In this document: positions 30,656-36,164 of the stretch, piece after piece | Layout of the letters: the number at the start of each line of letters is the position of its first letter | How positions within the stretch are numbered: position 1 is the first letter of the stretch | Assembly: GCA_965112155.1 (NCBI GenBank) | Contig: OZ218101.1 | Length of the DNA: 64,000 bases | Direction: 5' to 3' (one strand) | Origin: Podarcis liolepis | Taxonomy: Eukaryota | Notes under the pieces: model-generated | What the model was told of the DNA's origin: nothing | The model's input: the letters and a program-made list of their open reading frames with translations, nothing else | The model's database searches: none | Position numbers and translations under genes: made by a program

Positions 30656-30685
30656 ATTTTAGGAACACGTATCAGGAAGTAGTGG

Positions 30686-30688
<3 letters not shown>

Positions 30689-30728
<40 letters not shown>
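30689..30728. repeat. (AT)20 microsatellite at left end of PLE cluster
   Basis: Direct reading. Confidence 0.98.
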
Positions 30729-30731
<3 letters not shown>

Positions 30732-30774
30732 AGTTTTGGTGTCTTCGGGTGTCTTCCCGTGTAAGAGTTGGGGT

Positions 30775-30824
30775 GTCTAGGCGACGTTTCGACGAGGTCT
30801 CACTCGTCATCTTCAGGCTGGTGC
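30775..30824 (-). ncRNA. Minimal type I hammerhead ribozyme motif in PLE 3' repeat (copy 1)
   Basis: CUGAAGA-U-GACGAG-ugagac-CUCGUC-GAAA-C-GUC. Confidence 0.75.
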
Positions 30825-31041
30825 TTACGGCTTCTTGTTACTGGAACAGAGCAGGATCTCAGTGTTTGAGTTCCTATAAATACTGTTGAGGGGGTGTGGT
30901 GTATTCTGGGCAGAGAGGAAGTTCCCAGGATAGTGTGACTTTTCTTCTTTTGTTCCTTAATTACTTGAGGGATATCTTGAGTGATTTCTTGAGTGATATT
31001 CTGAGTACCACTTAGGAGGGTCATTAAGAGTGGATTAGTTG

Positions 31042-32300
31042 CTAAAGCTTTCGTGTCTTGACCTCTTGAGCTTGTGAAGAGTTTTTCTGAGAAGATGGCT
31101 GTACTGCACTTAGTTGTGCTCTGGCTTGGCTTCGTGTATACGCTTCGTGTATACGCTTGTTCATGTTGTGAGGGTGTTTCTCTATCTCGATGGCTTCCAT
31201 GATTATTCTCTTGTGGTGATGTTCCATGTTAAAGAGCAATTTGGAATCTGCAAAATTAATTTCGTGTCCTGTTTCTTTCATGTGTTGGAAAAGAGAGGAA
31301 GTTTTTTCTTCTTTTTTGACGGCATTCTTGTGTTCTGCGATACGTGCATTTATTCGTCTGTTTGTTTGTCCAATGTACGTGGCTGGGCAGACTTTGCAGG
31401 GTATTTCATAGACCCCTTGGTTTTCCAACTGGATTTTATCTTTGGGGTTTCTGAGGATATTGGCTATTTTTTGGTTGGTGCAAAAGGCTGTTTTGATATT
31501 GTGTTTATGGAGGATTTTGCTAATTTTATCTGTAGTGCCCTTGATATAAGGAAGGAGGGCCATGCCATTGTTTTCTTCTGTGTCTTGGTTTTTGGGGGGT
31601 GTTTCTTTTTGGATTAGCTTCGTAACCCTGTTTTGCTGGTATCCATTGGCGATTAACACATTTGAGAGATTCTGTAACTCAGTTGTCAAGTGGTCTTTGT
31701 CAGCCAGGCGTTTGGTTCTGGAGATGAGAGTCTTGGCTACGGAGTTTATTTGTGCAGGGTGGTGGTGTGATTGTGCATGTAAGTAGCGGTTGGTGTGTGT
31801 TTTTTTCCGGTAGATGGTGTGTCCTAGGGAGCCATCAGGTTTTTTGTAGATTAGGACGTCAAGGAAGGGAAGTTGGTTGTTGGCTTCTATTTCCATAGTG
31901 AATTGTATTTTGGGGTGTAGGCTGTTGAGATGTGTGAGGAAGCTATCTAGTTTTTCTTTCCCGTGTGGCCAAATTACAAAGGTGTCGTCAACATATCTGA
32001 GCCAAAGTTTGGGTTTGTGTTCTGACTTGTCTAAAGCATTGGTTTCAAAGTGTTCCATGTACAGATTTGCGATGACCGGTGAGAGGGGTGATCCCATAGG
32101 TGCTCCTTCTATCTGTTTGTATCTTTGTCCATTGTGGATGAAGTACGTGTTGGTTAGGCAGTGGTTGGTCAGGTCCAGGATGTATTCGGGGGGATTGTAT
32201 TTGTTTTGGATGGCTGTCAAGGCTTCATTAATGGGCACTTGTGTGAAGAGAGATACAACATCGAAGCTCACAAGTAGGTCATCGGGATGTAGGTTTTGCT
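31042..32300 (-). CDS. Penelope-like RT (partial) + GIY-YIG endonuclease, 5'-truncated open frame
   Basis: About 420 codons without a stop, with RT motifs and a C-terminal GIY-YIG containing CxxC. The N-terminus is cut by the inversion junction, so the annotated Met is artefactual. Confidence 0.88.
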
Positions 32301-32930
32301 TCTTTAACATGGAACATCACCACAAGAGAATAATCATGGAAGCCATCGAGATAGAGAAACACCCTCACAACATGAACAAGCGTGACGACACGTCCCGCCT
32401 GCCAGACATCTGGAAATTAGCCCTCCCCACAAAAACCGACACCAGAACCAGAGGCACACAGAACGCCATCACCAATCAACCACACCAGACCCAAACCCAG
32501 ACCCTCTCCACAGATAAATTACAGACACCATCCAGTAGCCAAACCATAGTGGCACCTCCGGATGCTACACCCCCCTGCAATCCCTACACAGATCTGACTG
32601 GCACAGCTCGCCCCTATACACGAAGCCAAGCCAGAGCACAACTAAGTGCAGTACAGCCATCTTCTCAGAAAAACTCTTCACAAGCTCAAGAGGTCAAGAC
32701 ACGAAAGCTTTAGCAACTAATCCACTCTTAATGACCCTCCTAAGTGGTACTCAGAATATCACTCAAGAAATCACTCAAGATATCCCTCAAGTAATTAAGG
32801 AACAAAAGAAGAAAAGTCACACTATCCTGGGAACTTCCTCTCTGCCCAGAATACACCACACCCCCTCAACAGTATTTATAGGAACTCAAACACTGAGATC
32901 CTGCTCTGTTCCAGTAACAAGAAGCCGTAA

Positions 32931-32980
32931 GCACCAGCCTGAAGATGACGAGTGAGACCTCGTCGAAACGTCGCCTAGAC
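32931..32980 (+). ncRNA. Minimal type I hammerhead ribozyme motif (copy 2)
   Basis: CTGAAGA at 32939-32945, 6-bp stem II 32947-32952/32959-32964, GAAA 32965-32968, GUC cleavage triplet 32970-32972. Confidence 0.75.
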
Positions 32981-33056
32981 ACCCCAACTCTTACACGGGA
33001 AGACACCCGAAGACACCAAAACTTGCATTCCTGTACCCGTGAAAATCTACGAAAGC

Positions 33057-33080
33057 ATATATATATATATATATATATAT
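33057..33080. repeat. (AT)12 spacer between the two PLE units
   Basis: Direct reading. Confidence 0.98.
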
Positions 33081-33156
33081 GCTTTCGTAGATTTTCACGG
33101 GTACAGGAATGCAGGTTTTGGTGTCTTCGGGTGTCTTCCCGTGTAAGAGTTGGGGT

Positions 33157-33206
33157 GTCTAGGCGACGTTTCGACGAGGTCTCACTCGTCATCTTCAGGC
33201 TGGTGC
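33157..33206 (-). ncRNA. Minimal type I hammerhead ribozyme motif (copy 3)
   Basis: Same core as copy 2, on the reverse strand. Confidence 0.75.
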
Positions 33207-34752
33207 TTTCGGCTTCTTGTTACTGGAACAGAGCAGGATCTCAGTGTTTGAGTTCCTATAAATACTGTTGAGGGGGTGTGGTGTATAGCCTCCAACGTTC
33301 TGGGCAGAGAGGAAGTTCCCAGGTTAGTGTGCCTTTTCTTCTTTTGTTCCTTAATTACTTGAGGGATATCTTGAGTGATTTCTTGAGTGATATTCTGAGT
33401 ACCACTTAGGTGGGTCATTAGGTGTGGATTAGTTGCTAAAGCTTTCGTGTCTTGACCTCTTGAGCTTGTGAAGAGTTTTTCTGAGAAGATGGCTGTACTG
33501 CACTTAGTTGTGCTCTGGCTTGGCTTCGTGTATAGGGGCGAGCTGTGGTTTTGTGCCCTGTGCCAGCCAGATCTGTGTAGGGATTGCAGGGGGGTGCAGC
33601 ATCCGGAGGTGCCACTATGGTTTGGCTACTGGATGGTGTCTGTAATTTATCTGTGGAGAGGGTCTGGGTTTGGGTCTGGTGTGGTTGATTGGTGATGGCG
33701 TTCTGTGTGCCTCTGGTTCTGGTGTCGGTTTTTGTGGGGAGGGCTAATTTCCAGATGTCTGGCAGGCGGGACGTGTCGTCCTTATATCAAGGGCACCACA
33801 GATAAAATTAGCAAAATCCTCCATAAACACAATATCAAAACAGCCTTTTGCACCAACCAAAAAATAGCCAATATCCTCAGAAACCCCAAAGATAAAATCC
33901 AGTTGGAAAACCAAGGGGTCTATGAAATACCCTGCAAAGTCTGCCCAGCCACGTACATTGGACAAACAAACAGACGAATAAATGCACGTATCGCAGAACA
34001 CAAGAATGCCGTCAAAAAAGAAGAAAAAACTTCCTCTCTTTTCCAACACATGAAAGAAACAGGACACGAAATTAATTTTGCAGATTCCAAATTGCTCTTT
34101 AACATGGAACATCACCACAAGAGAATAATCATGGAAGCCATCGAGATAGAGAAACACCCTCACAACATGAACAAGCGTGACGACACGTCCCGCCTGCCAG
34201 ACATCTGGAAATTAGCCCTCCCCACAAAAACCGACACCAGAACCAGAGGCACACAGAACGCCATCACCAATCAACCACACCAGACCCAAACCCAGACCCT
34301 CTCCACAGATAAATTACAGACACCATCCAGTAGCCAAACCATAGTGGCACCTCCGGATGCTGCACCCCCCTGCAATCCCTACACAGATCTGGCTGGCACA
34401 GGGCACAAAACCACAGCTCGCCCCTATACACGAAGCCAAGCCAGAGCACAACTAAGTGCAGTACAGCCATCTTCTCAGAAAAACTCTTCACAAGCTCAAG
34501 AGGTCAAGACACGAAAGCTTTAGCAACTAATCCACACCTAATGACCCACCTAAGTGGTACTCAGAATATCACTCAAGAAATCACTCAAGATATCCCTCAA
34601 GTAATTAAGGAACAAAAGAAGAAAAGGCACACTAACCTGGGAACTTCCTCTCTGCCCAGAACGTTGGAGGCTATACACCACACCCCCTCAACAGTATTTA
34701 TAGGAACTCAAACACTGAGATCCTGCTCTGTTCCAGTAACAAGAAGCCGAAA

Positions 34753-34802
34753 GCACCAGCCTGAAGATGACGAGTGAGACCTCGTCGAAACGTCGCCTAG
34801 AC
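34753..34802 (+). ncRNA. Minimal type I hammerhead ribozyme motif (copy 4)
   Basis: CTGAAGA at 34761, GAAA at 34787-34790, GUC at 34792-34794. Confidence 0.75.
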
Positions 34803-34848
34803 ACCCCAACTCTTACACGGGAAGACACCCGAAGACACCAAAACCTGC

Positions 34849-34866
34849 ATATATATATATATATAT
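34849..34866. repeat. (AT)9 at right end of PLE cluster
   Basis: Direct reading. Confidence 0.97.
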
Positions 34867-35490
34867 AAATTTTCATTATAAAAAAAGAAACATACAAAAC
34901 AAACATCATATTTTTCACCAACTTCATCTTTTTGACTCCCCTCAGCCTTTCTGATGATTCTTCGTTCTATTTACTTCTTCCACATTTCTCACATAATATT
35001 GCACTACCTTAATATCTTATTTACCCCCCCTTTTTTTTTACAATATTTCTACCTTACATTTTCACAGAACTTCCCGAAAACCTACAAACGTTGTTTGATT
35101 ATCACATAATGTTTGCATATACTCTGTAAATTTAGTCCAGTCCTCAGTGAATCTCTGGTCACGTCGATTCCGGATCCTTCCTGTTAATTTATCAAGTTCC
35201 GCGTAATCTGTCAATTTCATTCTCCATTCTTCAATCGTAGGCAATTCTTCTTGTTTCCATTTTTGGGCCAACAATATTCTTGCTGCTGTTACTGCATATA
35301 AAAACAACTTCCATTCTTTCTTATTAACTTCATTTCCTATTACACCTAGTAAGAATGCTTCTGGTTTCTTAACAAATGTATATTTCACAATTTTTTTCAT
35401 CTCATTATATATCATCTCCCAAAAGCTTTTTACTTTTTTACATTCCCACCACATATGGTGAAATGTTCCTTTTCCCCCCTTACATTTCCA
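34867..35490 (-). mobile_element. L1/Tx1-clade LINE 3' fragment (ORF2 C-terminal Cys/His-rich region + 3' UTR)
   Basis: WKCKGGKGTFHHMWWECKKVKSFW motif, an open frame to the stop at 35062, then an AT-rich 3' UTR ending at the (AT)n tract. Confidence 0.8.
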
Positions 35491-36164
35491 ATGAGAGCCG
35501 CCACTTGCCATTTAAGGGGATTTGGGTGAAGACCTCTGCTGAGGCTTCCTGGAGAAAGGAAAAGGATGGTGGAAACTTCCAGTTTCTTGTAGAAGCATCT
35601 TACGATCATGCACAAGAGCCAAAAGTTTTTCCAGGTTGGCTGATGTAAGTGGAGGTTGCTTCATTGGCTCTGTGAATGGCAAAGTCCAAGTGGCATTCTT
35701 TAGCTTCTGTCAGCTGGGAGTCCCCATCCTGAGGAAAGTAAGTTCCTAGAGACTAAATTGAAAACTGAAAAGTCCACATTTGGGATCTTTAATAAGATCA
35801 TTAACTCAGTATCAAGGGAGTAGAATTGGTTAGAAATAGATGCTAGCTTCTTAACTTGGAGTGGCAAATCCCATTCAGATTTGGATACATTCCTTAGCAG
35901 AGCTAGAACTGGAACACCAGAGTTAGAAGTTTTAGGTTCAGCTGCCTCAACATGGATTTGCAGAAAATGAATCAAACAAGCATTATTTCTCTTTTACTGT
36001 AACATAATCTTCTTGATCATGAAGAAACAGTAAATGCTTTCTATAGGAAGGCTTTCTACACTTTCTCATATGACTTGTTGTGAAGGCTCCGATAGTCTGT
36101 CGTCTCCAGATTTGCTTACAAAGCAATGAGTTCATTTTATCATGCTAGCAGATTGTTGGATAAG

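Follow-up and report, generated by a model that had tools for sequence, protein, structure and literature searches.

Penelope-like retrotransposons have been described as leaving inverted, 5′-truncated copies, often with a tail at one end and in AT-rich targets, by a mechanism that is called open in the accessible portions of the literature (PMC8557442; PMC3846280; PMC2377424; bioRxiv 10.64898/2026.07.22.740005). Here we analyze a 64,000-nucleotide (nt) stretch of Podarcis liolepis DNA (hereafter the window; C4:78492001-78556000 of the 1.57-Gb genome in which genome-wide counts were made), where two inverted insertions of one Penelope-like family are stacked in a run of AT repeats, and we compare them with other copies of that family.

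Among described systems, PAc of Anolis carolinensis cuts and extends both target strands in vitro and uses a pair of start sites, one on each side of the tail, with the distal site near +111-118, according to the accessible text (PMC11167929). Like the window element, PAc carries an open reading frame (ORF) with a reverse transcriptase (RT) followed by a C-terminal GIY-YIG endonuclease and has a preference for AT-rich cleavage; it has a hammerhead at the ORF start, where the window element carries putative hammerhead core motifs (PMC11167929). The two are separate families at 45% identity, and the window element differs in its near-exclusive use of (AT)n and in start sites whose AU would be able to pair with the target. 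For PAc, the accessible main text does not count inverted dimers, paired tails or target duplications across the genome (PMC11167929).

Penelope families of Drosophila virilis and Adineta vaga also carry an inverted, 5′-truncated neighbor copy in head-to-head arrangement, with an optional tail on one inverted pseudo-long terminal repeat (pseudo-LTR), AT-rich simple targets, and 8-10-bp duplications around inverted structures; in the portions available, few copies are described and self-priming on an antisense template is proposed (PMC2377424; PMC3846280). In contrast, the window element provides thousands of young, countable ends and a near-strict rule of one tail per unit. In L1 twin priming, both target strands prime on the RNA and the junction shows microhomology, with the second primer lying upstream and the two arms not overlapping. 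Both arms of the window element instead repeat the same 3′ end, with starts that are 30 nt apart.

Insertion biases toward (TA)n (Naiad) or microsatellites (Neptune), together with tandem and inverted structures, are described in the accessible text on those elements (PMC8557442). The same text offers a CX2-5CxxC linker, which these elements carry, as the hypothesized cause of microsatellite bias, whereas the window element is strongly (AT)n-biased without this linker; Naiad has an N-terminal endonuclease and no hammerhead (PMC8557442). A literature search by title and start of abstract returned no paper that gives the counts below or describes a Poseidon family as specific for (AT)n; subscription papers, Repbase reports and Arkhipova 2006 lay outside its scope, and the last two may cover such targeting. 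Because inverted 5′-truncated copies, one-sided tails and AT-rich targets were already published for Penelope elements, the novelty implied by the first-pass annotation of this locus was overstated.

Inverted dimers with one tail and one source

The window carries (AT)20 (30689..30728), unit A (30729-33056), (AT)12 (33057..33080), unit B (33081-34848) and a 19-nt right (AT)n tract (34849..34867), in agreement with the layout (AT)20-A-(AT)12-B-(AT)9 proposed in the first-pass annotation; the tracts have no strand. Unit A joins a long, tail-less arm (30729..32306, minus strand), which is 5′-truncated inside the RT, to a short, tailed arm (32301..33056, plus strand) through 6 nt of exact microhomology as read by eye (32301..32306, no strand). 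Unit B joins a short, tailed arm (33081..33780, minus strand) to a long, tail-less arm that includes the GIY-YIG coding region (33779..34848, plus strand) through 2 nt of microhomology (33779-33780). The 30-nt Penelope tail is present in the window at the inner ends only, once per unit (33027..33056, plus strand, ORF +83 to +112, in unit A; 33081-33110 in unit B), and the shared (AT)12 tract forms a tail-to-tail junction. The first-pass annotation had overlooked this placement of the tail.

Window arms are 100% complementary over 414-672 nt, and therefore their inverted pairing is not due to chance. Within the stretch common to all four arms, 7 substitutions and a 12-nt indel separate A-left and A-right from B-left and B-right with zero exceptions, and these include all four of the arm-specific variants that had been named. 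The head-to-head inversion of 5′-truncated arms is likewise real, but this description was incomplete for A-left, where a 12-nt templated insert (31141..31152, minus strand) stands in place of an internal deletion (reference 2377-2622) unique to that arm. Beyond its 5′ truncation, A-left has thus lost ~230-250 nt that are kept in A-right, as evident by alignment of the four arms.

The other copies were counted by exact genome-wide matches to a core 30-mer that ends at the proximal end, and were dissected in a sample of 100 clusters on contig C1, taken as two sets of 50. Sample 1 came from the first 100 core 30-mer matches and is, together with the genome-wide counts, the only unbiased source for flanks; sample 2 (L111-L160) was drawn from matches already running into TATAT or the tail and is flank-biased. 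Another 30 loci came from a query including the terminal ATAT, which favors AT flanks, and these were left out of the flank, tail and arm statistics.

A parser yielded 100 complete inverted units outside the window, 6 more cut by a region edge, and 27 single arms, with 3 unclassable cut pieces left out. Head-to-head inverted insertions make up 106 of these 133 classifiable insertions, which upholds the earlier proposal that an inverted dimer is the normal product. One tailed and one tail-less end are found in 93 of the 100 complete dimers (50 expected, p about 1e-20), with the rule holding for 48/50 and 45/50 units in the two samples. The proposal that both arms of a unit derive from one source is supported by an arm divergence of 0.12% within units versus 1.2% between units (96 units; 46 differences observed versus a mean of 453 over 37.9 kb). 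Arms are identical in 71 of the 96 units, and the worst exception, L154, has 12 differences and two tail-less ends. Three rare markers, with 3, 12 and 7 matches genome-wide, occur on both arms at 8 of 14 loci and singly at the other 6. Because the extra single copies that bear a rare marker share that one marker alone, no source element was identified.

It is very improbable that the arms were made independently and became alike later, by arm-to-arm conversion or by trimming at the palindrome center. Long inverted repeats are unstable, which counts for such homogenization, and the shared variants that are rare in the sample look unselected (10 replacement versus 4 silent). However, later homogenization leaves the one-tail rule and the duplication of target around whole dimers unaccounted for, whole indel haplotypes are common to both arms, and the arms of the tail-less/tail-less pairs L154 and L080 have stayed different.

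The duplications are found at interrupted repeats. Among 14 units with an interrupted flank, four (L093, L126, L141 and L149) carry a 12-13-nt duplication around the whole dimer, and because it brackets the whole dimer, each of these four insertions represents one event. A script for duplications flagged 6 units in all; the matches at L062 and L115 are element-derived or trivial and were discarded, and those at L126 and L149 were checked again by eye. Aside from L134, which is considered below, the remaining interrupted-flank units are uninformative on this point.

Insertion into (AT)n, stacking and empty sites

The core 30-mer has 4266 exact matches in the genome, 2133 per strand, and continues into the tail in 2245 of them. 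Among the 2021 tail-less matches, 1913 run into TATAT. Genome-wide, the tail word runs on into AT repeat at 2934 sites and into the ORF at 370, given here as absolute numbers rather than fractions. Of the sampled ends, 214/227 adjoin (AT)4 or longer, and the other 13 comprise 11 at interrupted AT or AT-rich DNA and 2 that are rearranged. Tabulating the flanks and orientation of genomic copies, as the first-pass annotation had advised, therefore bears out both its (AT)n-preferring GIY-YIG Penelope family and its prevalent inversion. Tract-length peaks near 22 and 43 nt were rejected as element-specific because the same peaks appear in free tracts (L182-L213).

Two observations concern ends of other kinds. 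By eye, the (AT)n tracts at L186, L208 and L209 are broken by micro-insertions that resemble the element and range from a few bases to about ten, which possibly are minimal or aborted events. At L190, an element end at ORF +161 runs into (AT)n, and L167 has a jump at +156; the former could be a third start site.

The (AT)n could also have been added or lengthened by the element itself, through AU slippage or read-through of the source flank, rather than being mainly a pre-existing target. Perfect AT of at least 16 nt adjoins 185 of 200 ends, with lengths that resemble whole free tracts and not halves, as this explanation would have it. It also fits one paralogous site without a tract (L074 versus L198), which came from a search of paralogous flanks for empty sites that gave 2 usable cases of 104; a first run of this search was swamped by element-to-element matches. 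However, where a repeat is interrupted, its orientation is unchanged from one side of the dimer to the other and 12-13 nt of it are duplicated, which indicates pre-existing targets at loci other than the window. Many single arms also have AT at the truncated 5′ side, 15 of the 159 outer ends continue as (AC)n/(GT)n compound repeats, and the proximal start site has a single AU. We therefore regard element-made (AT)n as quite improbable, even with the further evidence in its favor from the window locus itself.

That evidence comes from runs of related organisms, whose flanks differ from the window by ~2%. A contig from run X6 spans an element-free site, with 174 letters between window positions 30680 and 34907, or ~125 beyond the share of the flanks, and this excess indicates that host DNA was lost at the window locus. 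Non-AT sequence follows 30690 in each of X6, X9 and X15, such that the left (AT)20 tract has no counterpart at this junction, although the X6 contig is seen in part and a short AT run could lie in the unseen portion. In X15, this sequence extends for 14 letters before it meets the right flank. The raw reads of run X22 gave no depth for the left flank. The comparison of orthologous sites thus provided the element-free site that had been sought, but with no AT tract at its left junction. Simple insertion into a shared, pre-existing microsatellite, as implied by the first-pass annotation, is not supported here given the non-AT left flank of the relatives and the ~125 nt of missing host DNA. Either the window tract arose in the lineage of the window or it lay at the right edge. 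Separately, the right flank (34868-35550) resembles the 3′ end of an older long interspersed nuclear element on the minus strand, and read depth is high from 35072 in all related-organism runs examined.

Stacking is common in the family. At least two insertions share one AT tract at 25 of 100 loci, with chains of three units at L086 and L115. Stacked neighbors are 2.2% apart versus 0.1% within units, and 0 of 8 measurable neighboring pairs are identical, in keeping with the proposal that stacked units come from different sources. Along the initial 8.6 Mb of C1, an exactly matched element end borders 32 of 64 long AT tracts and a diverged end borders 9 of the remaining 32, giving at least 41/64, an approximate occupancy because the tract-search pattern favors such tracts. 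If 35-55% of tracts are occupied, chance alone would stack 20-35% of loci, a range that brackets the 25/100 observed and makes the window stack ordinary for this family. Since (AT)n remains to either side of every insertion, the same tract can be hit again. Stacking is therefore likely to reflect saturation of a limited set of long tracts, and special attraction to occupied tracts is unnecessary as an explanation.

A mis-assembly of two haplotypes, which the first-pass annotation had named as a hazard, would produce a stack like that in the window, but we give it almost no credence. The same stacking recurs at a quarter of the sampled loci and in three-unit chains, short reads of relatives contain inversion joints (one of them at the ORF -42 site discussed below) and ends running into AT, and one relative's contig links both flanks.

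How the two arms may be made

Inversion junctions and arm lengths offer the closest view of how dimers form. Among 97 simple units outside the window, the junction has a 1-4-nt overlap in 42, a longer overlap in 12, a blunt joint in 9 and an insert in 34. The lengths of the two arms are coupled. In 50 of 92 simple one-tail units, the two breakpoints are no more than 30 nt apart, where permutation gives a mean of 9.2 such units and a maximum of 19; for units with both arms over 130 nt, the tally is 21 of 52 against a mean of 2.7. In addition, ORF -41 to -43 holds 22 of the 227 breakpoints and is 30 nt downstream of a TATA-like box that in unit A occupies 32873..32880 (plus strand; commonest breakpoint 32903, ORF -42). 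Arms stopping there include 13 tailed and 8 tail-less. From this pattern we infer that ORF -42 is the transcription start and that arms ending there reflect run-off at the RNA 5′ end.

These data lead us to favor, as the probable route, a staggered cut in (AT)n followed by two-ended priming on the RNA of one source element. The endonuclease would cut both (AT)n strands 12-13 nt apart, and both freed 3′ ends would prime reverse transcription on RNA of that element. One complementary DNA (cDNA) would begin at ORF +83 (GCAU), the proximal site, and its partner at +113 to +118 (AAUAU), the distal site, with each site pairing with the target through its AU. One proximal and one distal start would leave a single tail in every unit. 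Microhomology or short templated inserts would then join the ends of the two truncated cDNAs, followed by fill-in; arms halting at ORF -42 would have run off the RNA 5′ end, and longer or multi-unit arms would call for a circular or concatemeric template or for one or more jumps. Although every enzymatic step and the use of a single RNA molecule are things that we infer, two-ended priming is favored because it covers the single event, the single tail, the common source and the coupled arm lengths, and because it agrees with the behavior of PAc in vitro in the accessible text (PMC11167929).

Several results weigh against this proposal. The one-tail rule is broken by 7 of the 100 dimers, and L134 has 8-9 nt of AT on one side without a matching duplication. 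In the tailed arms of L063 and L104, differences from the partner arm are confined to the vicinity of the 3′ end, at marker sites of another subfamily, which indicates that more than one template can contribute. At the window locus, the left junction is without an AT tract in three runs of relatives. No evidence separates use of one RNA molecule from use of two RNAs of the same source. Furthermore, PAc is reported to initiate with no homology to the DNA that it cleaves, in contrast to the AU pairing that we assume (PMC11167929). Finally, among 32 distinct near-symmetric junctions away from -42, the tail-less arm is the longer one in 22 and the shorter in 7, and 9 of the 32 have an offset of -12 to -16 nt, with a mode near -14; both the bias and the offset are also predicted if one cDNA folds back on itself.

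Under such a fold-back, one cDNA would self-prime via a short inverted match, and the copy would be captured by a short tailed cDNA from the other target strand. We consider this unlikely, yet it is the alternative that we take most seriously. Near-equal arm lengths are what self-priming would produce, as is a tail-less arm that is the longer of the two (22 of 29 cases), and fold-back would accommodate the end-limited differences of L063 and L104, the internal jump common to both L167 arms, and the L161 array described below, whose arms have nearly the same stop phase in a 379-nt unit and differ in unit number. Self-priming has also been proposed for head-to-head Penelope inversions, in the accessible part of that report (PMC3846280). 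In opposition to fold-back, the A-left deletion is missing from the shorter A-right arm. This deletion and a 24-nt insert in one L105 arm are each absent from the partner arm, as expected of separately made strands. L081 and L146 have loop-less junctions with both arms at -42, which also speaks against self-priming. Shared first-strand errors would have marked a folded-back cDNA, but this candidate proof was rejected; of 26 sample-private variants shared by both arms, the three checked genome-wide all occur elsewhere, and so they give no sign of such errors.

A more specific version of two-ended priming seems doubtful when taken as a whole. In it, a dimeric RT-endonuclease would cut both (AT)n strands, and two RTs would travel in tandem on one, probably circular, RNA, with the distal-start enzyme displacing the proximal-start cDNA and stalling ~14 nt behind. 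The one-tailed inverted dimer would be the default product, and about half of long (AT)n tracts in this genome would thereby have become flanked by the element without the zinc-finger linker that has been credited with microsatellite targeting. An equal total arm length, as lock-step synthesis with an offset of about -30 would give, was rejected because there is no clear peak, with 4 of 32 junctions at -26 to -28.

Recurrent and multi-unit structures were also seen. L068, L096 and L149 share the same inversion junction (reference 2990/2976), which has thus formed three times beside a presumed hammerhead cleavage triplet; this could reflect cleaved RNA or a mere local 3-nt match. Loci picked because they contain the ORF start (L161-L166) have multi-unit tandem arms on both sides of one inversion. 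At L161 (C4:19590300-19600200), a 379-nt internally deleted mini-unit is repeated ~11 times on one strand and ~8 times on the opposite strand, to either side of a single inversion, with one tail-less and one tailed outer end. This array resembles a retrozyme-like concatemer made by the family of the window element. Tandem full-length copies of 906 amino acids (aa) flank an inversion at L162-L163, L165-L166 and L168-L170, and a variant-tail subfamily makes up most of the multi-unit arrays among loci where the tail is followed by the ORF.

Family membership and significance

In L069, a natural full copy, the repeat unit is 2964 nt long and contains an open ORF of 906 aa, and the ORF is open in other copies as well. 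This single ORF encodes an RT (RVT_1, E=9e-16) followed by a C-terminal GIY-YIG domain, which matches weakly (E=4e-4 on the window fragment, below the cut-off). The long arm of unit A retains the C-terminal part of the RT, the GIY-YIG domain and the pseudo-LTR, with RVT_1 at E=1e-12 and GIY-YIG at E=4e-4, again below the gathering cut-off. A DKG motif lies at residue 282, upstream of the RT, and the GIY-YIG motif at residue 705 of 906, after it, as a GVY..YIG core that contains CxxC with histidines downstream. A CCHH endonuclease motif and the DKG motif are given as defining features of the Penelope/Poseidon clade in the accessible text (PMC8557442). The pseudo-LTR overlapping the ORF start, the tandem and inverted structure, and the 30-nt tail (30-40 nt in this clade) point the same way. 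The CX2-5CxxC linker expected of Neptune/Nematis elements has no match within 120 residues upstream of the GVY motif, and the C-terminal position of the endonuclease differs from the N-terminal one of Naiad/Chlamys. By these domain and motif tests, the element is a Penelope/Poseidon-clade retrotransposon.

Minimal hammerhead core motifs (CUGAAGA, stem II, GAAA and GUC), recognized by sequence and the fold of stem II, are found at 32939..32972 (plus strand), where they overlap the ORF start codon at 32945, and they are present in all four arms. Despite these core motifs and stem II, an Rfam scan at E<=0.1 listed no hammerhead family. Rfam microRNA matches at 32984-33153 were rejected because they fall on the tail-to-tail palindrome and every one is below the gathering score.

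The closest named proteins are from Podarcis muralis (97% identity), Vipera latastei (82%) and Anolis carolinensis (45%). The Anolis protein (P0019, 836 aa) matches over 773 aa, and its N-terminus agrees by eye with the RNA letters in Fig. S1 of the PAc report, as far as that figure is accessible (PMC11167929). The viper-named protein (P0002) is far nearer at 82% than the Anolis protein at 45%, and on the likeness of these proteins, horizontal transfer between squamate lineages is possible.

The formation of tandem and inverted structures and the bias for microsatellites are named as unexplained features of Penelope retrotransposition in the accessible text (PMC8557442). The family described here offers thousands of young products that obey sharp rules, namely one tail, the same source, a 12-13-nt stagger, a run-off peak and coupled arms. 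These rules tie the genomic products to the sole in vitro system and yield predictions for it. The family also shows a strong (AT)n bias in a clade that lacks the linker proposed as its cause, and it has seeded a vertebrate genome with many near-perfect inverted repeats and interrupted AT microsatellites.

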